Shown piece after piece: positions 30,077-52,465 of a stretch of 64,000 nt of DNA (positions are counted from its first letter, which is position 1; each line of letters starts with the position of its first letter). Made by a program: the position numbers and the translations under genes. The stretch comes from an uncultured Bradymonadales bacterium (GTDB lineage: Bacteria; Myxococcota_A; Bradymonadia; Bradymonadales; Bradymonadaceae). The stretch is from the NCBI GenBank assembly GCA_964394615.1, contig CAYMYJ010000012.1:68223-132222 (forward strand), written 5' to 3'. The notes below the pieces were generated by a model. That model saw only the letters and a list, made by a program, of their open reading frames with translations. It made no database searches and was not told the origin of the DNA.

Positions 30077-30922
30077 ATGGTCTTCATGGGTAATTTCCTA
30101 AATATTGCGCTGACCTTTCCTCCCGTCATCTTCTCATTTTTGCTTGTCGTGGTGGTCATCTATTGGCTGTCCGTGATGGTGGGGGTGCTCGATCTCGATC
30201 TCTTCGATCTTGATTTTGATTTGGACGTCGATATGGACGTCGATTTGGACGTCGATATGGACATGGGAGGCGCAGCGGAAAGTGCGGCGGACGGTGCGGC
30301 GGAAAGTGCGGCGGAAGGTGCGGCCGAGGGTTCGGCGGAGCACGGCGATACCCCCGGGCTAAATGGCATCCTTCTAGGCATCTATTCGTGGTTGAGCCTG
30401 GGCCGAGTGCCGATAACCATCACGGTCAGTGTTTTCACATTATACGCGTGGATTATGACTTTCAGCGGGGTCTACTACCTTGGCGCAAGTCTGCCGGTTG
30501 CCATCGGTCTTTTTGTTGGGGCGACCGCGGCAAGTCTTTTCCTAACAGGACCGACTGTTCGCCCCATGCGCGGGCTTTTCCACACCCATACCAAACACGG
30601 GCAGGAGACTCTGATCGGGGCATTATGCGTGCTTACAACAGGGCGAGTGGATGAAAAGTTTGGCCAGGCTCTATTCGATGATGGGGGCGCCGGGCTTAAC
30701 TTATTGGTGCGCTGTGACTCGCCCGAAAACGGGATAAAACGCGGCGATCGCGCATTGATCATCGGTTACGATTCGGAGACTCGACTTTATTATGTCGAGC
30801 CCTACGAAAATCTGGCTGGCCAAGAAACAAAGTTCGATTTTGAAACAAGACTAGAAGACGCAGGTTCGATGTCCGACGTGACGTTGAACGGCGACGCAAA
30901 TATCGGAGAAAAGAATGAATGA
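30077..30922 (+). CDS. NfeD/YqiJ-like inner-membrane protein (DUF1449-type) with C-terminal OB-fold and unusual poly-acidic insert
   Basis: N-terminal TM helices, C-terminal NfeD-type OB segment (GALCVLTTGRVDEKFGQALFDDGGAGLNLLVRCDSPENGIKRGDRALIIGYDSETRLYYV). Located directly upstream of the flotillin gene, as in E. coli yqiJ-yqiK. Start is the first ATG of ORF 30035..30922 and may alternatively be 30086. Confidence 0.7.
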   Translation: MVFMGNFLNIALTFPPVIFSFLLVVVVIYWLSVMVGVLDLDLFDLDFDLDVDMDVDLDVDMDMGGAAESAADGAAESAAEGAAEGSAEHGDTPGLNGILLGIYSWLSLGRVPITITVSVFTLYAWIMTFSGVYYLGASLPVAIGLFVGATAASLFLTGPTVRPMRGLFHTHTKHGQETLIGALCVLTTGRVDEKFGQALFDDGGAGLNLLVRCDSPENGIKRGDRALIIGYDSETRLYYVEPYENLAGQETKFDFETRLEDAGSMSDVTLNGDANIGEKNE

Positions 30923-33086
30923 AATAACCATTATGTGGCTGGTCGTGGGCGCTGTGGGCCTCCTGATAATCCTTGGGATCCCAGTCATGTTGAGCCGCTG
31001 GTACCGCAAAGTAGATCAAGGCCAGGTGTTGATCATCAATGGTTTAAGCGACACGAAAGCGGTCTTTACGGGCGCCTTTGTGCTGCCTGTAATTCATCGC
31101 GCCGAGGTCATGGATATTTCGGTCAAAACGATCGAGATCGACCGTAACGGAAAAGAAGGGCTGATCTGTAAGGATAATATCCGTGCGGACATCAAGGTGA
31201 CCTTTTTTGTGCGAGTTAATCAGACGCAGGCCGACGTGCTCAACGTCGCGCAGGCCGTGGGCTGTGCCCGCGCTTCCGACCCGAAAACCCTTGAACAACT
31301 TTTTGGGGCTAAGTTTTCAGAAGCGCTTAAGACGGTTGGCAAGCGACTTGAATTTGAAGACCTCTACAACGAACGCGACCAGTTTCGTGACGACAGCATA
31401 AACCTCATTGGAACTCAGCTTAACGGCTATTCCATTGAGGATGCTGCGATCGACTACCTTGAGCAGACCTCGGTGGAAGCGCTCGATGACATGAATATTC
31501 TGGATGCCCAGGGTATCCGTAAAATCACCGAATTGACTGCGTCGCAGCGGGTCCGCACGAATGAGCTTTCGAACCGTGCGAAACGTGACACAGGCAAAGA
31601 TGACCTCGAAACCAGCATGGCCATGCTCGAGTACGAGCGGCAGCAGGCTGACGCGGTGGCTCGTCAACGACGAGAGATCGAGTCCACCCAGGCTCGAGAA
31701 TTCTCGACGGCGCAAGAGATTAAGTCGCAAGAGCACGCCAAAGCAGAGCTGGCACGACTTGAATCGGAACAGCAGGTTGCCGTTCGGGCGATCAATAAAC
31801 AGCGCGAAGAAGAAGTGGCCACCAAGAATCGCGAACGTGTGTTGGTGGTCGAGACAGAGACGGTCGAGAAAGAGCGCGCGCTTCAAGTCATCGCTCGCGA
31901 ACGGGAAACCGACCTTCAGCGTTATGCGAAAGATAAAGAGCTCGAGAAAGAGCGTAAGGCGATCGCCGAGATTATTCGGGACCGTATTTCGGTCGACAAA
32001 ACCGTGGCTCAAGAAGAAGAAAACATCAAAGACCTGCGCGAACTCGCCGGCGCCAACCGCGATAAACAAACCGCGATTATCGAAGCCGAAGGAAAGGCGC
32101 AGCAGTCGCTCGTCGCGTCGATCAAGGCTGCGGAAGCCAATGAGGAAGTTGCGAAATTTGCGGCTCGCGAACGTATCCTGACCGCTGACGCCGAACTTGA
32201 TGCCGCCGACCGTGTGGCCAAGGCAAAAATCCGCACCGCCGAAGGCACGCAGGCCGAACTTGCCGCCTCGGGTCTGGCGAATGTCCGTGTCAAGGAGGCC
32301 GACGCAATCGCCACCGAAAAACAAGGGTTTGTCGACGCCAAGGTGTTGAAAGAGAAGATGACGTCCGAGGCCGCGGGCCGCGAAGAGCAGGGCATGGTCG
32401 AGATTCGTCTCACACAGAATCGTGCAGAGGCCGTGGAACGTGAAGGACTCGCTGCAGCCAACGTCCTGCGAGAAAAAATGCAGGCGCAGGCAGTGGGTAA
32501 CGAAGACCAGTTGATGGTCGAAGTTCGCGTCAAAGAAGCGTCTGCTCAGGCGATCGAAAAAGAAGGAATGGCTCAGGCCAAGGTGCTTCGCGAAAAGGCG
32601 GAGGCCGAGGCTTCAGGAAACGAGAAGTTGTCGATGGCAGCTGCGTTGGGCATCCGCGAACGTCTGGTGGCCGAGGCCGATGGTTTGGCCAAGAAGGCCG
32701 AAGCGATGAAGGCGTTGGACGCCGTAAGTCGAGACCACGAAGAGTTCCGCCTTGCCCTTGAGCACGAGCGAACACTGTCTATCGAACGCTTCAAAGCACA
32801 GGTCGATGTTGCGCGCGCTCAGTCTGAAGTCATGGGCGAGGCGTTTAAGACGTCCAATATCAACATCGTGGGTGGCGACGAAGCTTTCTTCAATCGCTTC
32901 ACCAACGCGGTATCCATGGGCCAGGCCGTGGATGGGTTCCTCGCAAATAGCGACGTGGCACGTCGGGCTTTGTCCCGCGTGCTAGGCGATGATCAAGCCG
33001 CTGATGTCGCTTCGGTGATTTCCGGGCTTGCGTCTAAAGGGCCATCGAAAGATGCGTCCAACACCGAAGTCGTAGACGAAGCCTGA
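30915..33086 (+). CDS. Flotillin / SPFH (band-7) family protein, YqiK-like, with extended repetitive coiled-coil
   Basis: N-terminal TM followed by SPFH domain (QGQVLIINGL...VFTGAFVLPVIHRAEVMDISVKTIEIDRNGKEGLICKDNIRADIKVTFFVRV). Long E/A/K/R-rich coiled-coil with ~33-aa internal repeats. GGAGAAAAG RBS. Overlaps the preceding gene by 8 nt. Confidence 0.85.
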   Translation: MNEITIMWLVVGAVGLLIILGIPVMLSRWYRKVDQGQVLIINGLSDTKAVFTGAFVLPVIHRAEVMDISVKTIEIDRNGKEGLICKDNIRADIKVTFFVRVNQTQADVLNVAQAVGCARASDPKTLEQLFGAKFSEALKTVGKRLEFEDLYNERDQFRDDSINLIGTQLNGYSIEDAAIDYLEQTSVEALDDMNILDAQGIRKITELTASQRVRTNELSNRAKRDTGKDDLETSMAMLEYERQQADAVARQRREIESTQAREFSTAQEIKSQEHAKAELARLESEQQVAVRAINKQREEEVATKNRERVLVVETETVEKERALQVIARERETDLQRYAKDKELEKERKAIAEIIRDRISVDKTVAQEEENIKDLRELAGANRDKQTAIIEAEGKAQQSLVASIKAAEANEEVAKFAARERILTADAELDAADRVAKAKIRTAEGTQAELAASGLANVRVKEADAIATEKQGFVDAKVLKEKMTSEAAGREEQGMVEIRLTQNRAEAVEREGLAAANVLREKMQAQAVGNEDQLMVEVRVKEASAQAIEKEGMAQAKVLREKAEAEASGNEKLSMAAALGIRERLVAEADGLAKKAEAMKALDAVSRDHEEFRLALEHERTLSIERFKAQVDVARAQSEVMGEAFKTSNINIVGGDEAFFNRFTNAVSMGQAVDGFLANSDVARRALSRVLGDDQAADVASVISGLASKGPSKDASNTEVVDEA

Positions 33087-33101
33087 AACGAGTGAACATC
33101 G

Positions 33102-36100
33102 ATGAATGAAGACAATCCGGTCGAGAGTCCGGCAGTCCAGACGAGCAGCTATGACTTGATCAGGCGTCGCCTGCTAAGTCAGGGGGAGGTCCTGAAGGAA
33201 CGCGCTGAAACGCTTAATACGCGCCGGCAGGAGTTCTTTGGGTCAACGCAGTTGACTGCCATCGGACAGGACCGTATCCGCACCGAGAATAATTGTATTC
33301 CTGTGGATATTGTGAGTGTTGGCGGGAAATTCTTGTTTGGATACAACGTCTTCATCGGATTGCGAAAACAAACTTCGGTGGAGGATGTCTTTTCTCTTCA
33401 CAGTTTTTCGCGTGACGAAAATGAAGGGATTATTCTTGATCCTGTGCCCCAGGATGCCACGCATTTCCTGAGCGACGCGAGGTTTTTGCAGGATTTTCAG
33501 GACCTGTACACGTACTACAAGGACGCAAATCTGCTGCAGCTTCGGCGAGTGGATGGAAAGCTCCTCGCGATTTTTCAGGTCGGGTCTTCGTTGACCGATG
33601 TGCGTGTATTGCGCTGGAGCGTCTCTCCAACGGGTGAAGTCAATTACATCGATAATTCTGGGGTGCGCGACCATACTTTGGTCCCATCGCATGATTTTGT
33701 GTGGAAAATTGCCGGAAGAGAGGACCATGTGGGTGGACGCCATCCACACGTCAATATTTGCGATAAAGTCTTTGTAGAAGCGGTCGGCGGAGACCTCACG
33801 ATCAAGATCGAGGATAATACTGAGGATGGGCTTGGGATCTATCGGGAACCCGTGGATGACCCCAATCAGGCCCTCGGCGATGCCGACATCCATTACGCCG
33901 ATCTTGGGAATTTAGTTCTTATTAAAATCCGCCCCTATCGCGAGGAAAAAACGCGGTATTTTGTTTTTAATACCGTGACGCAGTCCGTCGTTCGAATTGA
34001 TGCGATTGGGCAGTCATGTATTCAATTGCCAGAAGACCACGGGATTATTTTTCCGGGCGGTTATGTGCTCGCGGACGGTGAGCATCGTGGATTTGATGCG
34101 GATATCACCGGGATGCGTTTTGCGGAGTCGATTCGCTCGCCCAACGGTGAAGACGTCCTCTTTGTGTTCTACCGGCCAAAAGACGGTCGCTATATTTTGC
34201 TCGCCTATAACCTGATTCGAAAAGAGGTCCAAAACCCCATTCATTGTCACGGATATTCTCTTTTTAGTGACGGGGCGTTGATCGTTTTTCGGGCGTCTGG
34301 GGCCGAGCCGACGCGTGTTCACCCTCTGCAAATCTGGCAGAGCCCGTTTGTCAGCGACGAGCACGCGGCGGCCCAACCAAGCGATGGCTCGTTCTTGTCT
34401 CGGGTCGGAAATGCCGATTTGGTTCGCGGCATTTCCGAAGCGTTGACCGTGGTGCGCATGGTCAACAATCAGCAACCCACGATGGGCGTTTACGAGTCGC
34501 TCATCCAGGCCGTGCAGCGGACTCGGGATGGATATTTTTGGATCGATGATCCAGAGACCGAAGGGCTAGGGGACGTCTTTAAAGACATCGCAAAAACGGC
34601 GGAACTCATTATCGATGAGTTCGTAAAAGTGACCGAACTCAAGGCGAAGGCGTCGAAGGCCCTCGTCGATGTTGAAGCGCAACAGGAGTCGATTCTTCGC
34701 GATGTGCGATTTGACGATTGGAAAGAACTGCAGCGGTTCATCGACGGTCTAGGCCAACTGCACGCGCTCAGAGGGCGCCTGATCACGATGCAAGAGGTTC
34801 GCTACATCGATGCCGCACGGCTCAGCGAACTCGAAGCAGAAGTGGTCGAGAAATTCGACCATTTAAGCAAGGCAACCGCCGGTTTTTTGCTCGCTGACGA
34901 CTCGCTTTCTCCCTACAAAAAATCGATCGAAGATCTGGTCTCTGAAGTCCAAAAGGTCAAAGACACGGTGGAGGCAAAAAACCTTCGTGCCCGATTGGAT
35001 AAAATCGGTGAGGGGCTGTCGCTTTTGACCGATGTTGTGGCGGGTTTGCAGATCGAAGACCCGACAGCACGAACTCGAATTCTGGAAGGAATTTCCGAGG
35101 TGTTAAGTCTGCAAAACCGGGCGCGCGCCTTGTTGGACGGGCGGCGAAAAAGCCTGCTCGAGGCCGAGGGGCAAGCCGAGTTTGGCATTCAATTTCAACT
35201 TTTCGGTCAGACCGTACAGAGCGCCGTCAGCGTGAGCGATTCGCCCGAAAAATGCGAAGAGATGCTCACGCGGCTGATGATTCAGATGGAGGAATTGGAG
35301 AGCCGATTCAGTGAATTTGAGCCATTTTTGGTGCAGCTCGCTGAACAGCGAGAGACCGTCTATGAGGTCTTTGAAAATCGCAAACAAAGCCTGCTTGAGG
35401 AGCGCCGCCGGCGAGCGCACAACACGGTTCAAGCGGCCGAACGCATCATGGCTGGGATTGGGCGTCGAACCGCGCGCATGCAGGATATCGATACGCTAAA
35501 TGCCTACTTTGCTGCGGATCCGATGGTCCTTAAAGTGCGCGAGTTGGTCGCCAATCTTCGTGAATTGCAGGATCCGGTTGCGGCCGACGATGTACAAACC
35601 CAATTGCGGACGGCGCGAGACGAAGCGATTCGTTCCCTGCGCGATCGGCTCGACCTTTTTGAGGGCGGCGATGACGTGATTCGACTTGGGGAGCATCGCT
35701 TCAGTGTGAACACGCATGACGTGGAACTGACGATGGTTCCGCGCGACGGCACCATGATGTTGCACGTGACGGGGACCGAGTTTTTTGAACCCGTAGAAGA
35801 CCAAGAGTTTCAGAGCACTCGAGCATTCTGGAATCAAACTCTGGTTTCCGAATCGCCCGAAATTTATCGGGCGGAATATCTGGCGGCAACGGTTCTTTTT
35901 GACGCCGAATCCGGGGCCTCCGAACTGGGCCTGCAGGGGTTGCATCAGGCGTGTTTGCAAGAGCAGGGCTTGGCTCCCGTGATTCGCAAGGCCATCGAGG
36001 CTCGCTATGACGAAGGCTACGAGCGGGGCGTGCACGACGCCGATGCGGCACTGATTCTTGAGAAAGTGCTGGGCATGTATCTGACGAGCGGATTGCTCCG

Positions 36101-38150
36101 TTTTAGTCCTCGCGCCCGTGCATTGGCCACGCTTTTTTGGTCGCTGCGAGGCAAGTCTAGTTTTCAAACGACCTGGGGCCGCCGAGCGCAGAGCTTTGGC
36201 CGGCTCAGGAAAACGCTTGAACACCACGGTCCGCTTCGCGAGCTTGGTGAGGTTTTTGCCGCTGAACTCGAGACATTTGGGTTGGAGCTCGGCCTGTTGC
36301 AAGAAGACAGCTCTCAGATTTCGCTGGAAGCCGGCCATTATCTTGCGGAAGAATTGGTGGAAGTGACGCCTCATTTTGTGTTCAGCGATGACGCATCGAC
36401 CTTGCGGGCGGCCTTCCTAGAGCATCTGAATCGCGAAAATACCCTGAATGATTTTCGCGCTGATGTAGAGAAATTAAAGGACGAGGCTTCGGCGCGTTTC
36501 GGGCTTGTGGAAAGCTGGATCGAGGGCTTTGTCGGTAAGAATCCCCAGCTCTCTGGTCTGTTGCGTAGCGCGCCAGAGGTGGTCGCGCTCGTGATCATCG
36601 AGGAGACACTTTCTGTTCAATTTAGTTCGACGCGTGTTGATGTCGTGATTCCCAATATTTTGGGTCAACATCCGAGAATACTTGAACAAAAATTATCGAT
36701 TCGACTGGATGAGTTTCTGGCGAGACTGCGGTCCTTTGTGGATGTGCAGGTACCCGCGTACCGCGAGTATCGACGCCGCATGCACGAGTTGCTGATTACG
36801 GAGCGTCGCAGACTACGCCTGGCGGAACTCAAGCCTCAGGTCCTGAGCACTTTTGTAAGAAATCGCCTCATCGATGAAGTTTATTTGCCCTTAATCGGCA
36901 ATAATCTGGCCAAACAACTTGGGGCGCTTGGTGACGGAGGGCGTTCGGACAGGAGCGGTCTGCTTCTTTTGATATCGCCTCCAGGTTACGGCAAAACGAC
37001 GCTGATGGAATACATCGCCCAACGCCTGGGGCTCGTGTTTGTCAAAGTAAATGGGCCCTCGCTGGGGCATAGCGTCACGTCGCTCGACCCGGCAGAGGCG
37101 CCCAATGCGACGGCTCGGCAAGAGGTCGAGAAGATCAATTTGGCGCTCGAGATGGGCAATAATGTTTTGCTTTATCTCGACGATATTCAGCACACAGATT
37201 CGGAACTTCTTCAGAAATTTATTTCGCTATGCGACGCAACGCGTCGGATTGAAGGCGTCTGGAAGGGGCGAACGCGTACGTATGACATGCGTGGAAAACG
37301 TTTTGCCGTGGTGATGGCGGGTAATCCATACAACGAAGCAGGACAGCGCTTTCGTATTCCTGACATGCTCGCGAACCGGGCAGATACCTATAACCTTGGC
37401 GATATTCTGAATGGCCGCGAAGACGTCTTTGCGCTCAGTTATTTGGAAAATGCCCTGACCTCAAATCCTGTGCTCGCGCCGCTTGCGACTCGCGATCGAG
37501 CAGATCTGCAGCGATTTATCCGCATGGCGCAGGGAGAGTCGATTGCCTTGACGGAGATGGACCATGACTATTCATCGGTGGAGGCGGGCGAGATTATCGC
37601 TGTTTTTCAACGGTTGTTGGTGGTTCAAAACGTTTTGTTGATGGTCAATCAGGCCTATATCGCGTCAGCTTCGCAAGACGACGACTACCGTACCGAACCG
37701 CCCTTTCAGCTCCAGGGTTCCTACCGAAATATGGCTCGTCTGGCGGAGCGCGTCGTGGCGGCAATGAACGACGAAGAGCTCCAAGCGCTCATCGATGACC
37801 ACTATGTTGGGGAATCGCAGACGCTGACGAAAGGCGCGGAACAAAACCTTCTGAAATTGGCCGAGATGCGGGGACGAATGTCCGAGGAAGCCGCGTCGCG
37901 CTGGGTGACAATGAAACGTGAGTTCATGCGCCGAAACATGATGGGTGGTGCCGAAGATCCGATTTCGCGCGTTGCCGCGCCTTTGAGTGGCTTGGTGCAG
38001 AAGCTCGACGACATGCATGAAGCGCTTAAGGGCGAGCGTCTGGCCGCCGAAGTCGGTGCGTTACGCGAGGCGTTAGTTGCGGCGCTTGCCGAGGTGTCAA
38101 AGCCGCCAGAATCGACAGTTTATATGCGCCTGCCGCTCAAGGAGGAGTAG
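33102..38150 (+). CDS. Giant (1682 aa) flotillin-associated protein with C-terminal MoxR/AAA_5-class ATPase domain
   Basis: Starts 16 nt after the flotillin stop. Walker A LLLISPPGYGKTTL, Walker B VLLYLDDIQH and sensor-1-like VVMAGNPYNE match the AAA_5 pattern. The N-terminal ~450 aa are beta-rich, the centre is a long coiled-coil, and no signal peptide is present. Confidence 0.8.
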   Translation: MNEDNPVESPAVQTSSYDLIRRRLLSQGEVLKERAETLNTRRQEFFGSTQLTAIGQDRIRTENNCIPVDIVSVGGKFLFGYNVFIGLRKQTSVEDVFSLHSFSRDENEGIILDPVPQDATHFLSDARFLQDFQDLYTYYKDANLLQLRRVDGKLLAIFQVGSSLTDVRVLRWSVSPTGEVNYIDNSGVRDHTLVPSHDFVWKIAGREDHVGGRHPHVNICDKVFVEAVGGDLTIKIEDNTEDGLGIYREPVDDPNQALGDADIHYADLGNLVLIKIRPYREEKTRYFVFNTVTQSVVRIDAIGQSCIQLPEDHGIIFPGGYVLADGEHRGFDADITGMRFAESIRSPNGEDVLFVFYRPKDGRYILLAYNLIRKEVQNPIHCHGYSLFSDGALIVFRASGAEPTRVHPLQIWQSPFVSDEHAAAQPSDGSFLSRVGNADLVRGISEALTVVRMVNNQQPTMGVYESLIQAVQRTRDGYFWIDDPETEGLGDVFKDIAKTAELIIDEFVKVTELKAKASKALVDVEAQQESILRDVRFDDWKELQRFIDGLGQLHALRGRLITMQEVRYIDAARLSELEAEVVEKFDHLSKATAGFLLADDSLSPYKKSIEDLVSEVQKVKDTVEAKNLRARLDKIGEGLSLLTDVVAGLQIEDPTARTRILEGISEVLSLQNRARALLDGRRKSLLEAEGQAEFGIQFQLFGQTVQSAVSVSDSPEKCEEMLTRLMIQMEELESRFSEFEPFLVQLAEQRETVYEVFENRKQSLLEERRRRAHNTVQAAERIMAGIGRRTARMQDIDTLNAYFAADPMVLKVRELVANLRELQDPVAADDVQTQLRTARDEAIRSLRDRLDLFEGGDDVIRLGEHRFSVNTHDVELTMVPRDGTMMLHVTGTEFFEPVEDQEFQSTRAFWNQTLVSESPEIYRAEYLAATVLFDAESGASELGLQGLHQACLQEQGLAPVIRKAIEARYDEGYERGVHDADAALILEKVLGMYLTSGLLRFSPRARALATLFWSLRGKSSFQTTWGRRAQSFGRLRKTLEHHGPLRELGEVFAAELETFGLELGLLQEDSSQISLEAGHYLAEELVEVTPHFVFSDDASTLRAAFLEHLNRENTLNDFRADVEKLKDEASARFGLVESWIEGFVGKNPQLSGLLRSAPEVVALVIIEETLSVQFSSTRVDVVIPNILGQHPRILEQKLSIRLDEFLARLRSFVDVQVPAYREYRRRMHELLITERRRLRLAELKPQVLSTFVRNRLIDEVYLPLIGNNLAKQLGALGDGGRSDRSGLLLLISPPGYGKTTLMEYIAQRLGLVFVKVNGPSLGHSVTSLDPAEAPNATARQEVEKINLALEMGNNVLLYLDDIQHTDSELLQKFISLCDATRRIEGVWKGRTRTYDMRGKRFAVVMAGNPYNEAGQRFRIPDMLANRADTYNLGDILNGREDVFALSYLENALTSNPVLAPLATRDRADLQRFIRMAQGESIALTEMDHDYSSVEAGEIIAVFQRLLVVQNVLLMVNQAYIASASQDDDYRTEPPFQLQGSYRNMARLAERVVAAMNDEELQALIDDHYVGESQTLTKGAEQNLLKLAEMRGRMSEEAASRWVTMKREFMRRNMMGGAEDPISRVAAPLSGLVQKLDDMHEALKGERLAAEVGALREALVAALAEVSKPPESTVYMRLPLKEE

Positions 38151-38309
38151 TCGGTGGCGTCGGAAGGGCTGACGTCGAATTCGTTCAGACGTTGAAATCA
38201 GTCGCAGCGATTGGCGTAGATGCCAGCGACCAAGGTATCGAGAAAAAGCCAAAAAAAAGCTCGCCGAAAAGTTCCTCGACGAGCATTTAATGAAGAATTT
38301 ACAGTCGAA

Positions 38310-39119
38310 TTAGAAGTCAGGAACACAGGCACCTGCGGTGCCAGGTCCAAGCTCAAGGTCACAGATGAAATCTTGGCCGCATTCTTCGTTCAGACGGCAT
38401 CCAAACTGGCATGATCCACCGGAGCAAATTTCGTGGGATTCGCCGACGCTGGCGTTACATTGGCTGTCGGTCTCACAGCCTGTTTCCATAGGCATATCGC
38501 TGCCCACGCATTCCGAAATCTGTGCGCAATCGCCAGCCGCTGCATTGACGCAAGTGAGCAGGAGATTCACGTCTGCTGCAGCCTCGGCCGAGCATGCAGT
38601 CTTTGCTGCAGCAGCCTGATTGGCGGGAAGCAATTCGCACGTCACACCGGCGTCGATGATCGTCTCGCAAGCAGCCGATATACCGGTAGAGGTGTTGTTT
38701 GCCGTGTTGGTTGAAGTGTTGTTTGCCGTATTATTTGCCGTGTTATTTCCCGACTGAGTTGGAGTGTAAATCACGCAGTTCAAACAGGTTCCTGGACTTC
38801 CCATGGTGAGGTCACAGAACTGATTTGAGGCGCAGTTATTATCCGAGGTACATCCAACCGAGCAAGTAAGCTCTTCTGTGTTGCAGTACTGGCCTGCTTG
38901 ACATGAGAGACCTGCCTGCAGGCATTCAGTATCGCCCACGCGTCCGTCGAGGCCGCAAGCCTCGGTGGTGCCGGGTTTTACGAGCATCTCGCCGGAGGTA
39001 TTATTGGCGGCGACGGTATTATTACTGCTGGTATTACCCGAGCTTTTGGTTGCGTCGTCACCACATGCGACAGCCAGTAAAATTCCCGAAAACAAAACCA
39101 CTAACTTTTTCATCATCAT
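38310..39119 (-). CDS. Cys-rich secreted lipoprotein with N/T-rich low-complexity repeats
   Basis: MMMKKLVVLFSGILLAVAC lipobox. About 30 Cys in CxxxC/CxC arrangements. NTANNT(S/A) repeats. Lies 228 bp downstream of the SWIM gene on the same strand. Confidence 0.6.
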   Translation of the reverse strand: MMMKKLVVLFSGILLAVACGDDATKSSGNTSSNNTVAANNTSGEMLVKPGTTEACGLDGRVGDTECLQAGLSCQAGQYCNTEELTCSVGCTSDNNCASNQFCDLTMGSPGTCLNCVIYTPTQSGNNTANNTANNTSTNTANNTSTGISAACETIIDAGVTCELLPANQAAAAKTACSAEAAADVNLLLTCVNAAAGDCAQISECVGSDMPMETGCETDSQCNASVGESHEICSGGSCQFGCRLNEECGQDFICDLELGPGTAGACVPDF

Positions 39120-39346: not shown

Positions 39347-41119
39347 CTATAATGCGCCTGCGCGGGCGAGCGAGGCTTCGGCGGCTTGCAGGTAGGTGGC
39401 GGCGGCGCACCAAGCGACGGCAAAGCCGACGGGGTCGGTTCGGTCGAGTCGGCCCGAAACATCGCGTTCCGCGAATTGAGCGCGTTCTAATAACTCGCTC
39501 AAAAGGTCGGCGGCGGTGTGCATGAATTGGGCGTTCAGGCGCGAAGCATCCCGTTTCACGGCGTGGGATGCGCCTGCATGGAACACAAAACGTCCGCCTT
39601 GTACGACACTTGAGACCCGTTGGCGCAGCGCGTGAAGAGGGTCTTGGATACCTTCTCCTTGCATCTCGACGTCGACGGGGTGTTGCGAGAGCACGCCTAG
39701 ATGTTCGGGCTTCAAAGTGTCGAGGCCCAAATTCATCAATCCGCCAACATCGTCCGGGAGGTTCAGCGTGCGCTCTGCTTCTGGTGCGGCATAAATTGCC
39801 AACGCATTGAATCCATCGCGGGCGTCGTCCGAGCGGCGTGCAACAAAAAGCGCTTCGAGGCCAGCCGCGCGTCCCAATAATTTCAAGTTTGCCAGGAATT
39901 TTAATCCCGCGCTTGTGGTGGGCGGCTGCAGCCGAATCGCACGGCCCGTGGCGGATTCTTGGACAATTAAATTCTCGCCATGAACTCCCACGACCACGGC
40001 ACGGAAAAAGACCAGGTCGTCGCCTGCGCGGCGGTCAAAAAGCTGACCGGAGGTGAAGGAGCGCGCCAGTTGTTCATCAAACGGTTCCTTCCACATCGGC
40101 CAATCCGCGACGGGCGTGCCTTTGAGTGTCACCGCTTTTACGGCTTTTCCGCTGCCCAGACGGCCATCATCGCTGCCTGTGGCCCCTTGCAAAAGTAGTC
40201 CTCCGCGGCAAATGGCGCGGGGAGCCGACTTCACATCGCCGATCGAAACGCCACCATCGTAGGCGCCAAGTGCTCGCGAACCGTTGCCTGGGGCGACGTC
40301 GGAGAGGGTCCAGAAAACGCCGTCTGGGTCGGCCAGATAGGTGACGGTGCCTGCGTAGCCGGTTTTGGTGAGGATGGGGTCTACCAAAATGCCCGTGAGC
40401 TTCTTTGAGCCGACATCCCGGTACTTGCGCCGAGCCGTGCCCACAAATCCACTGGCGTCGGTTTCAGGCTGCGAAAGCGCATGAGCGACTGTGACCAATT
40501 CACGAAATTCCAGGAGCAGTCGGTCGCGGTCGAAGGCAGGTGCCCCTTCGCGGTACATCCTGATTGATTCGGCGACACGCAGTCCTGCTGCCGACATGCG
40601 GTGTAGCCCATGAATTCGTGCCGAGTGAACGGCCCTTAATAATTCGTTGGAGACCGTCAGGCTGGCATTTGCTGCTCCGCGTTCCAATAGGCGTCCGGCG
40701 GCGCGAAGTGCGACTTCGGCTGCTGCCCTGGCTGCAGGCTCAATCGTCGTGATTGGCTCCTCATCTAACTCCTCCGTAGGCGTGCTTGTTTGTGCGCCAT
40801 CGGCGTTGTTTTCCTCGGAGGTTTCTGCGGAAGCATCGCGTAATGGGAGCGCGTGAATTACAGCAAGGACATGAAGGCAGCGTGGGCTTAAAAGGCATGA
40901 GCACTGCACTAAGTCAGTTGCGCCAATGGCGCCCCCAGATGCCACGGAAAGAGTGACCTTTTCGGTGCCCGTGTCGATTTCCCATGAAGCTTCCTGTGCG
41001 ACCCAGGTCCATGCCTCGGAGAGCTTGGGGTCGGCGTCCAATTTCTTCTGGATTCGGCCAGGCGCGGCTTCAGTCAAAGTCGCCACCACCAGCGGGTCGA
41101 TGAACGGTCGTTGAGTCAT
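39347..41119 (-). CDS. SWIM zinc-finger family protein (YehQ-like)
   Basis: Canonical SWIM CxCx(n)CxH motif: CSCLLSPRCLH near residue 75. 590 aa, similar to E. coli YehQ (~610 aa). Its ATG overlaps the stop of the upstream VWA gene (ATGA). Confidence 0.7.
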   Translation of the reverse strand: MTQRPFIDPLVVATLTEAAPGRIQKKLDADPKLSEAWTWVAQEASWEIDTGTEKVTLSVASGGAIGATDLVQCSCLLSPRCLHVLAVIHALPLRDASAETSEENNADGAQTSTPTEELDEEPITTIEPAARAAAEVALRAAGRLLERGAANASLTVSNELLRAVHSARIHGLHRMSAAGLRVAESIRMYREGAPAFDRDRLLLEFRELVTVAHALSQPETDASGFVGTARRKYRDVGSKKLTGILVDPILTKTGYAGTVTYLADPDGVFWTLSDVAPGNGSRALGAYDGGVSIGDVKSAPRAICRGGLLLQGATGSDDGRLGSGKAVKAVTLKGTPVADWPMWKEPFDEQLARSFTSGQLFDRRAGDDLVFFRAVVVGVHGENLIVQESATGRAIRLQPPTTSAGLKFLANLKLLGRAAGLEALFVARRSDDARDGFNALAIYAAPEAERTLNLPDDVGGLMNLGLDTLKPEHLGVLSQHPVDVEMQGEGIQDPLHALRQRVSSVVQGGRFVFHAGASHAVKRDASRLNAQFMHTAADLLSELLERAQFAERDVSGRLDRTDPVGFAVAWCAAATYLQAAEASLARAGAL

Positions 41120-44100
41120 GCTCGCCCCTTAATCTTGTCGCCAACCCAGCGGGCCATTTCGAGCGGAGTCAGTGCGGCGACCGGCATGCCGGCAGCGACA
41201 CATAACGACGCGATGGCGTTGTTGTAACGGGGTTTTCCGGAATCATCGAGTGCTGCCAAGCCGAGTGCGTGAACGCCGGATTCGACCAACGCGCGAACCT
41301 CGTGAACCAGTCCATCGACGCCCCAGCCTTCTTCAAAGTCGGTAACCAGTGCCAAAATAGTTCGGTTTGGAACGACGATATGTTCGCGGGCATAACGAAG
41401 AGCTTTGGCGATATGCGTGCCGCCGCCGACCTCGACTTCAAGCAAGAGCGAGAGCGGATCCACTGCTTGTTCGGTCAGGTCGATGACCTGCGTGTTAAAG
41501 GCATAAAATTGAACGCTTACCGAAGGTAAGGATTGCAGAATAGCCGCCATGATTGCTGCATAAATTACCGATGCCGTCATCGACCCAGAAACGTCGACGA
41601 CAAGCACGACATGCCAATCCAGGGATCGTTTAGCGCGTGTTTTAAAATAAATTCTTTCCGGAACAACGCGACGTGTGCCGTCTTCGAGTTCTCGCAGGCG
41701 GTCCAGATTGGCACGCACGGTTCGTTTTAGATCGATAGGGCCGCCGGGTCGGCGGGTGGGGGCAGGTGTCGCAAGTCCAGTGAGAGCGGGTTGAAGTCGG
41801 ACGGCCAGTTCTTTGACTAATTGGTCTACAACTTTGCGAATGAGGGCTCTTAATTGCCCTAATTGGCCGTCGGAAAGTCCGCCTTTTAGGCTCAATAATG
41901 ATTCAAGTAACTCGACCGATGGGGCGATATTTTCGCCATCGAGTTCGAATGCAGCAGTGGGATAGCCGTGTGTAATGGCGGTTGCTAGCACTTCTTCGCG
42001 TACTTTTTCGCCAAATAGATTTTGCAGTTCGTCGGCCCATTCGCGAACGTTTGGGAAGGCTTCTTCTTTTCCGCCTCCGCCTCCCAGTCCGCCGCGCGAG
42101 CCTTCTCCTTCGCCGCCTCCATAAAGTTGTTCAAGCGCCCGAGCTGCCTGACCCGCCATTCCCGTCATTTTTTCGCGTTCTCGCCCCAGAATCAGTTGCC
42201 ATCGCTCCAAGGCGGTGATGCGCAAATCCTTAGCTTCGGTGCGCTCTTGCTGGTCCTCAAGGTCGTCGTAGGTTCGACGCGGCGGGCTGAGGAATTTTGC
42301 GGCTGCGTCGCGGCCGGCTTCGTCTGCGACTTTCCAGATCCCCAATAATTCGGGGTCTTGATTCAGCACAAACGCGCCGTGGTGACCGCGTGGATCCAGG
42401 GTTTGCGGAAAGGCATCGGACAAAGACGCCAGCAGGCGTTCTCGAGCGGCGGCTGAAAGACCATCGAATCCACCGCGAAGGGCCGGCAAGACCGCTAAAA
42501 ACTCGGTGTCGTCGATCGTTTCGATTTGTTGGGAAAGCTGGTCCAAAAGGGTCGCGTCGTTTTCCAGCAGTGATGAGGCCGCCTTTAAAAGACCGCGCAG
42601 CCGCAGCGAAAGGTCGCGCCGGGTCTCGGCATTATTGGCCGAGATAAGCCAAGACACGGTCGTTTGGCCAAAGGCTTCGGCATCGACTTTGCCCATCACG
42701 ACTTGTGCTGCCAGGCCCGCGCCCTGCATCACCGGGGAGCCTTCACGAGCGAAAAGTTCGGCAAGCCAACTCAGGCGGCCGGTTCCCAGTTCGTCGTCGG
42801 CGGGTTGCAGTTCTGCAAGCGCTACGACTTCCATGAAATCGACAACATCATTCAGGTCGTCGGAGCCGGTGAGACCTTCGCATGCGCGAATGGCAGCGGC
42901 CAAAAATGATGCGCGTGGGAGGTTTGGTAGGTCCAGATTCTGGGCATCCAGTCCCGGGAAATGCCCCTGATGCACTGCTTCCAAGAAGCGCAGTCCATCC
43001 AAAATTCGCCGCAAGTCGGCGATGGGCAGGTATTCGGTGTGCAGCAGGTGAATCGATTCTGAAGTCAGGTCGGGCAGGGCGGCGCGGGCTGCCTTTTCGG
43101 CGACGGCGAGCATGGCGCGCGCGTCCCAGGTGTCTTCCTTTGCGTCGCGGGCTTGTTGCCATTTAATCGCACCTTGGGCGGCCTGCTCAAGCGTGACGCC
43201 CCAGATGCCGGCGAGCTCGATCATGGCATCGGTCGAGACCTCCCATTTGATGTCCCAAAGGCGTGTCAGGGTTTCGGTGGCGCCAATGGCCTGTCCGGCA
43301 GCCTGGTTTCCGTACGGAATGCCGCAAACGTCCAGTCGTTCAAGCGTGACGTGGCGTCGCATGTCTTTGTCGCCTCGCAAGGGATCGAGGCGCAACGTGT
43401 CTTTGCTGGCTCCGCCGGGGCCTGGAAGACCGAGGTCGCTGAGCGTTTCGAGGACGTGCGGATAGAGCCCGCTTCGCGGTGTGTTTGGCGCCAGGCGTCC
43501 GCGTTCTCGGCCCACCATCACACGTTCAATTGATTTTGCGAGTACTCGCCCACGGCCAAGTATTTCACCTCGCGCCATGGCAGCCTGCATGGCTTCGAGA
43601 ACCTCAAGCCGTCCGGGAGCAGGAAGGCCGCGCAGACTGGCGAGGTCGAGCGCCATTTGGGTTGCGGCTGTGGCGTCGGGCACACCCGAAACATGGCCCT
43701 GGGAGCGGAGGTCACGCGACACGGCAACGATGACGTCGGCGGCCAAATCTCGCACAGCATCTGGCGTCCTAAGAGCGTGCATGACGCGCTGTTGCCACAT
43801 CGGGTCGCGGATGCCGGCTGGGTACATCGAGCGCGAATCCAGCAATTCAAACGCATACGGAATTAAGGACGTAATCATTTTAGCCGGAGCGTCCGTCGGG
43901 GCCGGCGTGTCGCGGCCAATCATCTGAGGTTGTGCCAGAAGTGCTGGTGCATGAAATGCTCCGATAATTACGGCGACTTTTTTATCGTCGTAGCCACCGG
44001 CTTCTTTGATGACGGCGCGCATGCGTGATTCACGAACGGCATCCAGGCTTGGGATGGCGTCTTGCAGGTGTCGATCGCGTCGCAACGCCCAACCCAAATA

Positions 44101-44607
44101 GAGTCCGGCACGCCGGATGGATTCTGCCGTGGCGCCCGGCGCGCGGGCTTCTACGGAGCGGTCCCAAAGGTCTTCAAAACCCGTGGACGAAAAATACTTT
44201 TCGACCGAGGTCATCGCGTTTTCTTCCACTCGGTACGATTCGCGTTCATAGTCCATGCGATGGCCCGCATGAAGGTCGCAAGAGCGCACGGGTACTTTGT
44301 TTCGCACGGCCCAACGAATCGCCGAAAGCTCCGGTGAAAAGTCGGCAAATGGGTAAAAAGAAAGCCCATCGCCTGATTCAGGAACAGCGGCAAGGGCCAC
44401 CGGTGCCGTCATTTCGGCGTGACCAAGCCATTCCATCCAGGAATCAAACTCGGCAGGCAATTCGATCAGGACTTCGTCGGGGCCAAATTGGTCCAATAGC
44501 GCATCCACCATGGCCGAAACGGCTGGCGAATGGTGTCTGACACCGATCAAATAGGGCTGAGTCGATGCCACCAGGGCCTCAAGCTCGTTTTTTAATTCGT
44601 CTTCCAT
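41116..44607 (-). CDS. Large MoxR-partner protein: N-terminal ~800-aa region (YehM/DUF5682-like by size and context) fused to a C-terminal VWA domain (YehP-like)
   Basis: C-terminal VWA with MIDAS motif VVLVVDVSGSMT plus downstream Thr/Asp. Gly/Glu-rich linker (GGGEGEGSRGGLGGGGGKEE) precedes it. Its start overlaps the MoxR stop (TGATG). The size, 1163 aa, is close to YehM+YehP (~759+378). Confidence 0.75.
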   Translation of the reverse strand: MEDELKNELEALVASTQPYLIGVRHHSPAVSAMVDALLDQFGPDEVLIELPAEFDSWMEWLGHAEMTAPVALAAVPESGDGLSFYPFADFSPELSAIRWAVRNKVPVRSCDLHAGHRMDYERESYRVEENAMTSVEKYFSSTGFEDLWDRSVEARAPGATAESIRRAGLYLGWALRRDRHLQDAIPSLDAVRESRMRAVIKEAGGYDDKKVAVIIGAFHAPALLAQPQMIGRDTPAPTDAPAKMITSLIPYAFELLDSRSMYPAGIRDPMWQQRVMHALRTPDAVRDLAADVIVAVSRDLRSQGHVSGVPDATAATQMALDLASLRGLPAPGRLEVLEAMQAAMARGEILGRGRVLAKSIERVMVGRERGRLAPNTPRSGLYPHVLETLSDLGLPGPGGASKDTLRLDPLRGDKDMRRHVTLERLDVCGIPYGNQAAGQAIGATETLTRLWDIKWEVSTDAMIELAGIWGVTLEQAAQGAIKWQQARDAKEDTWDARAMLAVAEKAARAALPDLTSESIHLLHTEYLPIADLRRILDGLRFLEAVHQGHFPGLDAQNLDLPNLPRASFLAAAIRACEGLTGSDDLNDVVDFMEVVALAELQPADDELGTGRLSWLAELFAREGSPVMQGAGLAAQVVMGKVDAEAFGQTTVSWLISANNAETRRDLSLRLRGLLKAASSLLENDATLLDQLSQQIETIDDTEFLAVLPALRGGFDGLSAAARERLLASLSDAFPQTLDPRGHHGAFVLNQDPELLGIWKVADEAGRDAAAKFLSPPRRTYDDLEDQQERTEAKDLRITALERWQLILGREREKMTGMAGQAARALEQLYGGGEGEGSRGGLGGGGGKEEAFPNVREWADELQNLFGEKVREEVLATAITHGYPTAAFELDGENIAPSVELLESLLSLKGGLSDGQLGQLRALIRKVVDQLVKELAVRLQPALTGLATPAPTRRPGGPIDLKRTVRANLDRLRELEDGTRRVVPERIYFKTRAKRSLDWHVVLVVDVSGSMTASVIYAAIMAAILQSLPSVSVQFYAFNTQVIDLTEQAVDPLSLLLEVEVGGGTHIAKALRYAREHIVVPNRTILALVTDFEEGWGVDGLVHEVRALVESGVHALGLAALDDSGKPRYNNAIASLCVAAGMPVAALTPLEMARWVGDKIKGRA

Positions 44608-45770
44608 CAGAACGACTCGGCGTGGGCCTGTTCGATGATTGGGCGCAACTCAAGAAGTCGCTTCCACATGCGGGCTCCGCCTTCGGCGCGTTTTTTAACG
44701 ACGCCATCCCAATACGAAAGCAATTTACCGCGGTCGTTCGGGTCGTCTTTCAAAACGACACCCAATAAATAGCCTGGGAAAAGCGACAAAACATCACGGT
44801 CGGACGAGAAATAGGCTTGCTGCAAACCAAGCGAGGACACGACCGAGACACACTCGGCGGTGCTCATGACCGTGCTTGGTTTTTCGACCGCCCAACCTTC
44901 GACACTGCGGCCGTTGCGCAGGTCACGAAACGCCGTAACCACGGCTTCCAGCACGGCATCGTCGACGCCGAGTTCTTGTTCCACACGTGCCAGATTAGCT
45001 TTCGCACGATTGGTAACCAGTGCTTTTTCTCGCTCAAATTCTGGGATCGGATGAACCAATTCGAAATTAAATCGGCGTTTAAGTGCTGCCGACATTTCGG
45101 AAACCCCGCGGTCACGAAGGTTGGCCGTTGAAATGACATTAAATCCGGGCTGTGAAAATTCGATTCGTGTGCCGTTTTCGTCGGCCAATTCTGGAACGGC
45201 GAGTCGACGGTCCGAAATGATCGAAATCAAGGCATCTTGGACTTCGGGCAGGCAGCGTGTGACTTCTTCGATTCGGACGATCGAACCATTACGCATGCCG
45301 GTCATCACAGGAGACGGCACAAGCGCTTCGGGTGTGGGGCCGCCCGCCATCAGCATGGCGTAATTCCAGCCGTAACGAAGTTGGTCTTCGGTCGTTCCCG
45401 CAGAACCTTGCACGGTCAACGCGCTGGAATGTGAAATAGCTGCTGCCAGAAGCTCCGAGAGCATCGACTTCGCCGTTCCAGGCTCACCCACAAGCAGAAG
45501 TCCGCGTTCGCTGGCGAGTGTCACGACACAGCGTTCAACGAGGTCACGTCCACCGACAAATTTCTCGGAGATTTCGAGCTGAGCGGGGCCATCATATTTG
45601 GCGCCTTTGGGCATCTTTAGTTTTTGCCCATTGCTGCCTGCAACAAAAGCGACGACGGCGCGTGGTGAGAGGCGCCAACCGGGCGGTTTGGGCCCGTCAT
45701 CCCAGGCAGCAAGGAAGCTCAGTTCTTCGGCGAATACGAGTTCAGCAGGTGGTGACTGTACGGGTTTCAT
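44607..45770 (-). CDS. MoxR-family AAA+ ATPase (YehL-like)
   Basis: Walker A LLVGEPGTAKS, Walker B/sensor region VRIEEVTRCLPEVQDALISII, sensor-1 NVISTAN. 387 aa. First gene of a three-gene minus-strand operon. Confidence 0.85.
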   Translation of the reverse strand: MKPVQSPPAELVFAEELSFLAAWDDGPKPPGWRLSPRAVVAFVAGSNGQKLKMPKGAKYDGPAQLEISEKFVGGRDLVERCVVTLASERGLLLVGEPGTAKSMLSELLAAAISHSSALTVQGSAGTTEDQLRYGWNYAMLMAGGPTPEALVPSPVMTGMRNGSIVRIEEVTRCLPEVQDALISIISDRRLAVPELADENGTRIEFSQPGFNVISTANLRDRGVSEMSAALKRRFNFELVHPIPEFEREKALVTNRAKANLARVEQELGVDDAVLEAVVTAFRDLRNGRSVEGWAVEKPSTVMSTAECVSVVSSLGLQQAYFSSDRDVLSLFPGYLLGVVLKDDPNDRGKLLSYWDGVVKKRAEGGARMWKRLLELRPIIEQAHAESF

Positions 45771-48712: not shown

Positions 48713-50185
48713 TCAGCGACGTCTGATGGCGATTAGGCCCATGCTGGCGAGCAAGAGCAGGAGCGGGGAATCTGCGCCGTGATCGGCGGTGGAACAGCCC
48801 CCATTCAGGTCGAAAGTGAGTGGGTCTTTTTCGTCGATTGGGTTTTCGGTTGGATCGGGTGTCTCGTCGATCGGCTCGTCGATGATTTCTTCATCGGGGA
48901 TATCACCATCTTCGTCGCAGGCCGGTCCGAATCCATCTCCGTCTTCGTCGATCTGGTCGGAATTGGCGATGAATGGGCAGTTATCCAATTCATCGATCAC
49001 ATTGTCGTTGTCGTCGTCGAGGTCGCAGATGTCACCAATGCCGTCTTCCTCGCTGTCGGCCTGTTCCGGGTTGGCGATGAATGGGCAATTATCGACCTCA
49101 TCAAGGATGCCGTCGTTGTCAGAATCATCGTCGCAGGCGTCACCGATTTGGTCCTCGTCGATGTCATTTTGGTCAGGGTTTGGGTTTTTGATGCAATTAT
49201 CGAGACTGTCTGGGACTCCGTCCTCGTCGACGTCGCTGCACACGTCGCCGATACCGTCTTGGTCGGAGTCTTTTTGGTCAGGGTTGGCAACGTCGGGACA
49301 ATTGTCGATCGAATCCACGATCCCGTCTTGATCCCGATCTTGGTCTTGTTCGGGCAGTTCGATGGCCAACCATGCGGTCGTAAAGGCAAGGCAATCTTGA
49401 ACCTGACCTTGCGACCACATCGCCTGAGTGGTTCCGGGCAGCATCAACGAATTCACGTCAAATTGCAGGTCGTCCCACATCGGCCCGTCGATCCCCGCGA
49501 AGGCGTTTGTGGCGATCGTGGACCCCATGAATGTCAACGGACCGTCGGGTCGGTCTTCACCATCGCCGACCATCAACCCAAACGTGCTTTTGTTGGGGAT
49601 GACAGGAACGTCTAACGATTCAAAAATTGAAGAGGTGACATCGCCCATATTGGACGCCGCTCGCGCGCCGTCGTGAACGATGATTTGGGTTGTGTGGGTG
49701 GCGGTCAAATCCTGATAGATGACCATTATCGATACGCCATTGGCGTCGCCCACGGCCGTGGCAGCACTGAGCAATTCGCTGATCTTGAAGACGCCATTCC
49801 CAGGCACCAACTGAGTCACATCTGCCCGATATGAATACGTTGCGTCTCCGCCCCAGCAAGAGGGGCCAGCTTTGCCGATTCGAGTTCCAATGACTCGCGT
49901 GCCATTCATGTTGACCGTGCTGTCTTCAAGGCCCTGAATCGACCAATACAAAAAGGCGTGAAGTACGGTTGCGTTCGTAGGCACGTCGGAAATTATAATG
50001 TCGTTGGACAGGACCGGGAGTCGCGAGCGGCCGGCAAAACCGACCCCAGCCGTGGTGATGCCGCCTCCAGGGATGATGTCGCGGAACGACTCCGCTAAGA
50101 CTTCGTCGCCATCGGCCCACGCGGTTGATGAAAACGAAATCGAGGCTAAAGCTGCAAGAATAATAATCGATTTATTTACATTCAT
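48713..50185 (-). CDS. Secreted thrombospondin-type-3 (Ca-binding) repeat protein with MYXO-CTERM-like sorting signal
   Basis: Signal peptide MNVNKSIIILAALASISFSSTAWA. At least 6 repeats of DxDxDGxxDxxDNCPxxxNPDQxD type. C-terminus GGCSTADHGADSPLLLLLASMGLIAIRRR (GC motif, hydrophobic helix, RRR). Confidence 0.7.
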   Translation of the reverse strand: MNVNKSIIILAALASISFSSTAWADGDEVLAESFRDIIPGGGITTAGVGFAGRSRLPVLSNDIIISDVPTNATVLHAFLYWSIQGLEDSTVNMNGTRVIGTRIGKAGPSCWGGDATYSYRADVTQLVPGNGVFKISELLSAATAVGDANGVSIMVIYQDLTATHTTQIIVHDGARAASNMGDVTSSIFESLDVPVIPNKSTFGLMVGDGEDRPDGPLTFMGSTIATNAFAGIDGPMWDDLQFDVNSLMLPGTTQAMWSQGQVQDCLAFTTAWLAIELPEQDQDRDQDGIVDSIDNCPDVANPDQKDSDQDGIGDVCSDVDEDGVPDSLDNCIKNPNPDQNDIDEDQIGDACDDDSDNDGILDEVDNCPFIANPEQADSEEDGIGDICDLDDDNDNVIDELDNCPFIANSDQIDEDGDGFGPACDEDGDIPDEEIIDEPIDETPDPTENPIDEKDPLTFDLNGGCSTADHGADSPLLLLLASMGLIAIRRR

Positions 50186-51487: not shown

Positions 51488-52465
51488 ATGAACACAAAGC
51501 AAAAACGACTCGGAGCGGCCATTGTCGCGATTTTGGCCATTATTGTGGTTGTTGTAGCCACCGATGACGGTGGATTGGTCACGCTCGGTCGTTGCGCAAT
51601 CGGTGACGGTTTGTACGTCCGTCCAAATCCCGCCATCGATTTTGTGGGTGATTTCTACGGGCTGAAATTCAAAGGCAACACCGAAAACCTCATCGACATG
51701 GAAGTCCACGGATTTGGAGGCTTCGAAAAACCGATTCTTCAACTCATGGAAGATTCGTTGGCGATCATGGCCCCAGCAGGCGAGGGCGTGGTGTTGGATG
51801 TGGGAGCCAACGTGGGACAACACTCGATGTTCATGTCTCGCACAGCCAAGGTCGTTCATTCGGTGGAGCCGTTTCCCCCGGTCTCAGCTCGCATGAACGA
51901 AATGTTGGAACTCAACAAAATCAAGAACGTGGTGCTGCATCCGGTCGGGTATTCGAATCAAAATGGTTCGCTGCCGTTCACACCCCCCGATGAGGAAAAT
52001 CACGGCATCGGGACGTTTTCTGCTGACCGTCGAGCGGGCGCCAAAAAACAGATCGAATTGCCTCTGTTAAGAGGAGACGACGATTTGGCGAACACGGGCG
52101 TGACGCATGTTGATTTGGTGAAATTGGATATCGAAGGTTACGAGAAATTCGCCCTCGAAGGTCTTGCGAAGACGATGAAAGCCAACCGACCCGCCGTGGT
52201 GATGGAGCTGAACTGCACCAACCAGGAAGGCTTTCATAACGCCGAAGATTTGAAGAATGCCTTTCCAGAGAATTACGTGTTTTATGACATCGTCCAGCGA
52301 CGCGATTATAAATGGTCGCTGGGCGGTAAAGACATCATGTGTGGCCGCTCACACGGCGAGTATTGGTTGGTGCCGTTCGATATGCGTTTCGACGAAGATT
52401 CGCGGAATATCTTGGCGATTCCAGCCGAGAAAAAGGACAAACTCTCGCTCTATCGTGACAAATGA
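51488..52465 (+). CDS. FkbM-family methyltransferase with N-terminal TM anchor
   Basis: VVLDVGANVGQHS, typical of FkbM. N-terminal hydrophobic LGAAIVAILAIIVVVVA. Confidence 0.65.
   Translation: MNTKQKRLGAAIVAILAIIVVVVATDDGGLVTLGRCAIGDGLYVRPNPAIDFVGDFYGLKFKGNTENLIDMEVHGFGGFEKPILQLMEDSLAIMAPAGEGVVLDVGANVGQHSMFMSRTAKVVHSVEPFPPVSARMNEMLELNKIKNVVLHPVGYSNQNGSLPFTPPDEENHGIGTFSADRRAGAKKQIELPLLRGDDDLANTGVTHVDLVKLDIEGYEKFALEGLAKTMKANRPAVVMELNCTNQEGFHNAEDLKNAFPENYVFYDIVQRRDYKWSLGGKDIMCGRSHGEYWLVPFDMRFDEDSRNILAIPAEKKDKLSLYRDK

Follow-up and report, generated by a model that had tools for sequence, protein, structure and literature searches.

The stretch of DNA analysed here (64,000 nt, hereafter the window; positions 68,223 to 132,222 of contig CAYMYJ010000012.1, assembly GCA_964394615.1, from an uncultured Bradymonadales bacterium) carries on its minus strand a trio of genes that begins with a MoxR-class ATPase. 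The first gene (44607-45770) encodes a 387 amino acid (aa) AAA+ protein, which matches the AAA_5 model and E. coli YehL and is assigned to the YehL subfamily. The second (41116-44607) encodes a protein of 1163 aa, in which a DUF5682 and a VWA_CoxE domain are fused and which corresponds to Escherichia coli YehM plus YehP. The product of the third gene (39347-41119) has 590 aa and contains a SWIM-type zinc finger (CxCx5CxH). The sequences of the junctions revealed that the ATPase gene and the fused gene overlap by 1 nt (tTGATGg), and the fused gene and the SWIM gene by 4 nt (cATGAc). The three genes are translationally coupled. An earlier reading of the same DNA, made without database searches (the sequence-only reading), had reported three minus-strand open reading frames (ORFs) with TGATG and ATGA overlaps, and the coordinates, lengths and junctions were all found to be as described.

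A second locus, on the plus strand, starts with a small stand-alone DUF4132 gene (5653-6525; 290 aa according to the public gene call, L085; DUF4132 match with E 6.3e-22). Its stop codon is 8 nt upstream of the ATG of a very long ORF, giant 1 (6534-11189, 1551 aa), which is followed on the same strand by giant 2 (11153-16081, 1642 aa) and giant 3 (16596-21248, 1550 aa). Three giant tandem paralogs had been noted before at about 18 kb from the trio; the ORFs are indeed present at 6534-21248 and are mutually homologous. All seven ORFs of the two loci are intact and full length, and their motifs are conserved.

Conserved order of the five genes

In other genomes the two loci are joined in a single array. 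The canonical order is DUF4132, a giant of about 1,600 aa, the MoxR ATPase, the DUF5682-VWA protein and the SWIM protein, and the array represents one five-component system, in which the trio would be the motor/adaptor module. Linkage was assessed in 80 genomic loci scored by tblastn, of which 73 had at least 8 kb of upstream and 78 had enough downstream sequence. The co-directional order DUF4132-giant-MoxR-fused was found in 72 of the 73 loci, the sole exception being a planctomycete, where tandem giants push DUF4132 past the flank. In 78/78 loci the fused gene is immediately followed by the SWIM gene. When the test was reversed and anchored on the giant, using metagenome contigs, DUF4132 was found in 62/62, the MoxR gene in 38/41 and the fused gene in 28/29 cases. 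Both sets of counts support the linkage between trio and giants that the sequence-only reading had proposed.

The arrangement can be illustrated with Streptomyces sp. 3213 (L003). In this strain the trio is preceded by a 288 aa DUF4132 protein and a 1630 aa protein without Pfam match, and three of the four junctions (DUF4132/giant, MoxR/fused, fused/SWIM) are 4-nt overlaps. The giants of the window are homologs of the Streptomyces giant, to which giant 1 is 30% identical over the full length (E 1e-81).

All five families are encoded in the window, but the array is split between 5653-21248 (plus strand) and 39347-45770 (minus strand), 18 kb apart. The Microvenator-like Bradymonadales genome thus carries a split form of the five-gene system, with the giant triplicated. 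The linkage is also retained, with the modules in reversed order, in a Bradymonadales-like genome (L088), in which the trio is followed by ECF (extracytoplasmic function) sigma factor genes and then by DUF4132 and the giant, both modules lying within 3 kb. The segment between the modules of this genome (L088 7394-8869) codes for two ECF sigma factors and a zf-HC2 anti-sigma factor, which are possible dedicated regulators.

Multiplication of the giant is not confined to the window. Two tandem giants occur in six metagenome contigs (L093, L131, L132, L134, L138 and L151; giant span about 10 kb), and where the giant is duplicated the order is DUF4132, giant, giant, MoxR, fused, SWIM. The giant is also tandemly duplicated in a planctomycete (L022 626-7206). 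Tandem giants thus recur in unrelated contigs and in the planctomycete, and the window with its three copies follows a more general trend.

Properties of the encoded proteins

The ATPase gave a Pfam match to AAA_5 that covers the whole model (1.2e-36). The Walker A motif GEPGTAKS, which had been pointed out earlier as a sign of a MoxR-class ATPase, is at aa 95-102 (nt 45465-45488), and a Walker-B-like motif, IVRIEE, is at aa 164-169. For direct protein comparisons the yeh locus of E. coli K-12 served as reference. In BLASTP the ATPase aligned with YehL along its full length (45% identity and 63% positives over 379 aa, E 2e-101). The scores with other MoxR-type models, GvpN and MadB, were far under the cut-offs, and the Pfam model bpMoxR (PF20030) scored 22.3 bits against a cut-off of 27 bits, covering only profile positions 9-56 of 205. 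By these sequence criteria the protein is a member of the YehL subfamily, one of the seven recognised MoxR subfamilies (PMC3893208).

The fused protein matches DUF5682 (PF18934) at aa 34-905 (4.3e-157) and VWA_CoxE at aa 934-1155 (5.9e-54). Its N-terminal part is 25% identical to YehM (aa 16-518, E 2e-26), whereas residues 790-1161 align with the entire YehP (37% identity, E 9e-64; BLASTP). Since the N-terminus aligns with YehM and the sequence from residue 790 onward with all of YehP, the protein is a straightforward YehM-YehP fusion, as the sequence-only reading had supposed. The N-terminal 800 aa, for which YehM-like similarity had been predicted, fall within a full-length DUF5682 match.

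The VWA domain (aa 934-1155, nt 41143-41808, minus strand) has a complete MIDAS (metal ion-dependent adhesion site): D1005, S1007, S1009, T1064 and D1090. The DVSGS string, already recognised in the earlier reading as the MIDAS of a C-terminal VWA domain, is located at aa 1005-1009 (nt 41581-41595), and the threonine belongs to a GGGT motif at aa 1061-1064. Motifs of the ATPase and of the MIDAS are intact and invariant (51-sequence alignment for the fused protein). In structure comparison the VWA model matched the MIDAS domains of NorD and midasin.

In the AlphaFold2 model of the fused protein (pLDDT, the predicted local distance difference test, 82) an N-terminal alpha/beta domain is followed by a long helical region, a helical YehP-like segment and the VWA domain. 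The N-terminal domain (aa 1-275, nt 43783-44607, minus strand) contains the invariant residues R24 H25 H26 S27, E49, E93, D111 and H219, which are kept also when E. coli YehM is included. They are located at strand ends in a region of the model where pLDDT is above 90. The invariant cluster looks like a putative metal-binding or catalytic site. A sequence relative of this domain was not found in Pfam or in the Protein Data Bank (PDB), and its fold could not be assigned.

A search of 5.8 billion proteins with the fused protein returned 2967 matches. Each of the top 120 has a length of 1130-1420 aa and contains both domains; they span Bradymonadales, Myxococcota, Streptomyces and other actinomycetes, Acidobacteriota and Planctomycetota. 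A scan with one genome per species yielded at least 570 relatives of the fused gene. The nearest named relatives are from a Microvenator sp. metagenome-assembled genome (L005, 95% identity) and from Allomicrovenator marinus (54%). The DUF5682-VWA fusion is the majority architecture and is ordinary across hundreds of species of Actinomycetota, Myxococcota and Planctomycetota. The emphasis that the sequence-only reading had put on a fused middle component was justified as to the fusion itself, but not as to its peculiarity. What is new is the linkage of the trio to the giants and the five-component system, not the fusion.

In the SWIM protein the string CSCLLSPRCLH, which the earlier reading had identified, is located at aa 73-83. 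The finger (C73-x-C75-x5-C81-x-H83) is encoded at nt 40871-40903, and its zinc ligands are invariant in 42 homologs, even though the Pfam SWIM model scored 15.7 bits (E 0.011), under its 19.6-bit cut-off. The family has about 1040 representatives at 50% clustering. The AlphaFold2 model (pLDDT 89; pTM, the predicted template modelling score, 0.83) places helical bundles and a central beta-barrel region after the finger. The central region gave weak Foldseek matches to HIN-200/OB-like structures (E 2e-3); otherwise generic helical bundles were matched, and there was no informative solved analog of the model. Profile alignment with E. coli YehQ was confined to the finger and the adjacent helices (E 0.096; 0.5 bits). 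The YehQ-like assignment of the sequence-only reading is thus tentative: the invariant finger, the last position in the operon and the similar length agree with it, but homology to YehQ beyond the zinc finger was not demonstrated. In two members of the SWIM family, P0294 and P0153, the N-terminal SWIM module is duplicated, which is also the case in E. coli YehQ. A third, P0302 (1399 aa), has an unexplained 800 aa N-terminal extension before the SWIM-family part.

The three giants are conserved in blocks at both termini and vary in the middle. Giants 1 and 3 are 59% identical; giant 2 is the most divergent paralog (40% identity to giant 1, 36% to giant 3). Altogether 539 homologs were collected for this family of about 1,600 aa, none of which carries a Pfam domain. 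The giants of the window gave no match with Pfam, NCBIfam or PADLOC, and nothing among PDB sequences. When segments of the giants were compared with Pfam at E values up to 10, only sub-threshold winged-helix matches appeared, at the C-termini (giant 2: TrmB, 0.053). The sequence-only reading had likened the giants to the DUF4132 genes molR and yehI. This did not hold, as DUF4132 is a separate protein of about 290 aa encoded upstream of giant 1. The giants as DUF4132/YehI homologs were ruled out by the lack of a Pfam match, the lack of BLAST similarity and an hhalign probability of 0.1%.

Genomic context and related systems

The trio of the window is flanked by housekeeping genes, in synteny with A. 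marinus. Genes of MutL and of an amino-acid permease near the trio (window 52462-55682; A. marinus L002 56-7013) belong to the syntenic segment, and the synteny points to a stable place in the chromosome, not to a mobile island. Scanning for promoters and terminators gave background levels, apart from a strong hairpin after a non-conserved 269 aa ORF. This cysteine-rich ORF (window 38259-39119, minus strand) lies between the SWIM gene and the hairpin, and may be co-transcribed with the trio. The terminator-like hairpin (38284-38259) has an 11-bp stem followed by T8. The 269 aa ORF and a 353 aa flanking ORF were rejected as members of the system, for they are not conserved outside close relatives.

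Convergent with the trio is a second uncharacterised cluster with a giant ATPase (window 29574-38150, plus strand). It comprises two ORFs without Pfam match, a 723 aa SPFH/Band-7 protein (30915-33086) and a 1682 aa protein with DUF3686 (8.7e-203), DUF7902 and AAA domains (33102-38150); PADLOC gave only a weak LmuB-like match (4e-4). On the other side of the trio, window 48713-50185 (minus strand) encodes a 490 aa protein (MtsC-like) that combines thrombospondin type-3 repeats with a MYXO-CTERM sorting signal, which fits an origin in Myxococcota/Bradymonadales.

The closest known counterpart is the yehL-yehM-yehP-yehQ cluster of E. coli, where the components (ATPase, DUF5682, VWA_CoxE, SWIM) follow each other in the same order as in the window. 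The E. coli cluster likewise has an associated DUF4132 protein, with yehF, yehH (molR) and yehI located upstream. There are several differences. YehM and YehP are products of separate genes in E. coli, but form one chain in the window. DUF4132 is the C-terminal domain (aa 954-1138) of the 1210 aa YehI, whereas in the window it is a stand-alone 290 aa protein. The E. coli cluster is associated with WGR-domain proteins (YehF); in the window DUF4132 is followed by giants of 1,550-1,650 aa. E. coli YehQ has two SWIM fingers, and the SWIM protein of the window resembles it only at and near the finger. Lastly, the window system is split over two loci with a triplicated giant, unlike the E. coli yeh cluster.

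In E. coli the yehLMPQ cluster is core, with a single chromosomal copy in 5353/5426 complete genomes. With the E. coli yehLMPQ segment as query (L001 14597-20945), 934 genomes matched at only 90-95% identity, apparently a high degree of divergence for a core region. In a sublineage of sequence type 131 a resistance transposon is inserted in the DUF4132 region beside yehLMPQ (PMC9334617).

The better known MoxR-VWA pairs NorQ/NorD, CbbQ/CbbO and RavA/ViaA belong to other MoxR subfamilies (CGN or RavA), not to YehL (PMC3893208). The N-terminal part of the VWA partner in the window is DUF5682, which is unrelated by sequence to NorD, CbbO and ViaA, and the DUF4132, giant and SWIM partners have no counterpart in these systems. 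Unlike NorQ/NorD-type systems, the trio has no client genes for nitric-oxide reductase, Rubisco or respiratory complexes nearby. The CoxD/CoxE system for maturation of CO dehydrogenase shares the VWA_CoxE domain, but cox genes are absent from the ORFs of the window that were scanned and from the conserved neighbourhoods. Midasin/Rea1, which functions in ribosome biogenesis, is a single chain of 5,000 aa with six AAA modules, whereas the ATPase of the window is a separate 387 aa protein and no client with a ubiquitin-like domain is evident. The MoxR-vWA-beta-propeller ternary conflict systems, from which the bpMoxR profile derives, likewise have a three-gene core of a MoxR ATPase, a vWA protein and a variable third partner. 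In the window the third partner is the SWIM protein, not a beta-propeller, with no effector domains recognised and no PADLOC match.

Proposed function and alternatives

We somewhat favour the view that the five components form a NorQ/NorD-like remodelling machine, which would act on or with the DUF4132 and giant proteins. According to cryo-electron microscopy work on NorQ-NorD, the VWA finger enters the pore of the MoxR ring, and the ATPase twists and stretches the NorD linker, thereby remodelling the client (PMC13036017). By analogy with NorQ/NorD, CbbQ/CbbO and RavA/ViaA, a hexamer of the YehL-like ATPase would engage the VWA domain and the linker of the fused protein, and ATP hydrolysis would pull or twist it. 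The intact MIDAS of the VWA domain could bind a client protein through one of its acidic residues. DUF4132 and the giant, which are inherited together with the trio, would be the most likely clients or scaffold, and the SWIM protein a likely targeting subunit. More speculatively, the His/His/Glu/Glu/Asp/His cluster of DUF5682 may be a metal or catalytic site, the state of which would be set by the motor.

Also speculative is an action of the complex on or close to DNA, which is weakly hinted at by the SWIM finger, the OB-like barrels, the weak winged-helix signals of the giants, the WGR domain of YehF and the reported induction of DUF4132/WGR relatives by DNA damage. In Deinococcus radiodurans depletion of DdrO induces DRA0166 (DUF4132) and DR2173 (WGR), and MolR was reported to be in the LexA regulon (bioRxiv 10.1101/2021.07.07.451423).

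Several observations weigh against the remodelling interpretation. The modules of the window lie 18 kb from each other, differ in strand and are separated by unrelated genes. Within 10 kb of the A. marinus trio there is no giant, and the trio may therefore be capable of functioning without one. The sample of 80 genomic loci is dominated by actinomycetes, and 72/73 therefore overstates the number of independent observations; despite this, the array order recurs in several phyla. It is gene linkage only that points to the giant/DUF4132 pair as candidate client. The hints at nucleic acids are all weak or below threshold, and E. coli-type LexA boxes occur in the window at 12 sites (14.6 expected by chance), none of them upstream of either locus. 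In the literature searched, DUF5682 was not mentioned in any paper, and no functional work on yehLMPQ came up.

Among the alternatives, the one that survives best, though we regard it as unlikely, is that of a nucleoside triphosphate-dependent conflict or anti-phage defence system, as suggested in the sequence-only reading. The giants would sense the invader, the MoxR-VWA pair would transduce the signal and the DUF5682 N-terminus, for instance as a hydrolase, would be the effector. Diversification of the tandem giants in the window, which differ most in the middle, and the duplications in other contigs would fit such a role, as would the conserved putative catalytic cluster of DUF5682; however, none of the components contains a recognisable nuclease, protease, TIR or other toxin domain. 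No defence model of PADLOC-DB v2 or NCBIfam matched the five components, the only matches being P-loop matches at chance level (IetA, 0.006), with none for the fused, SWIM, DUF4132 and giant proteins, and bpMoxR remained below threshold. In favour of this reading, the array is found in Streptomyces near chromosome ends and on linear megaplasmids, a HigB/helix-turn-helix toxin-antitoxin pair adjoins the trio in A. marinus, and E. coli yeh genes are listed as silenced by H-NS/Hha (PMC3686432). Against this, defence islands are typically patchy whereas the E. coli cluster is core, the window flanks are housekeeping genes, the system is absent from phages except for host flanking DNA in a prophage record, and plasmid carriage is limited to megaplasmids. 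On balance the suggestion of a conflict or defence system gained no support.

A more elaborate possibility, which we consider doubtful and a shade less probable still, combines remodelling with recognition of nucleic acids. The system would then be a hitherto undescribed ATP-driven surveillance machine, shared by E. coli, actinomycetes and myxobacteria. Diversifying giants with winged-helix C-termini would, together with DUF4132, detect nucleic acid that is damaged or foreign, targeting would be provided by the SWIM/OB-like protein, and the motor would switch on a new metal-dependent hydrolase domain, the N-terminus of DUF5682.

The trio could also be a chaperone of the CoxD/CoxE or NorQ/NorD type, which inserts a metal cofactor into, or matures, an enzyme encoded elsewhere, the giants and DUF4132 being unrelated or scaffolds. 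We find this improbable: in about 160 loci no metalloenzyme is conserved beside the array, DUF4132, the giant and the SWIM gene being the only conserved neighbours, and there are no cox, nor or cbb genes in the window. Least probable of all is that trio and giant locus of the window are functionally independent and co-occur as the remnant of an ancestral array that decayed in Bradymonadales, for although the distance and opposite orientation of the modules, the A. marinus trio and three metagenome giants without adjacent trio speak for it, all seven ORFs have stayed intact, the Bradymonadales-like genome L088 keeps its modules together, and near-identical copies of both window loci occur in several metagenome assemblies.

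The remodelling machine remains our preferred interpretation. YehL stands alone among the seven MoxR subfamilies in that no proposed client or function was found for it in the literature, and E. coli yehLMPQ is a core yet unexplained part of the "y-ome". For the giant family of about 1,600 aa there is no Pfam model, and a literature search found no paper on it. The strict gene linkage provides concrete candidate clients or partners for the YehL motor. The triplicated, diverged giants of the window offer a natural handle on specificity. If the surveillance machine were real, it would represent a DNA-damage or anti-invader system of a new class and would give a function to the yehF-yehQ block of E. 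coli. Taken together, the five components add up to over 4,000 residues of protein that is conserved in hundreds of species yet uncharacterised.

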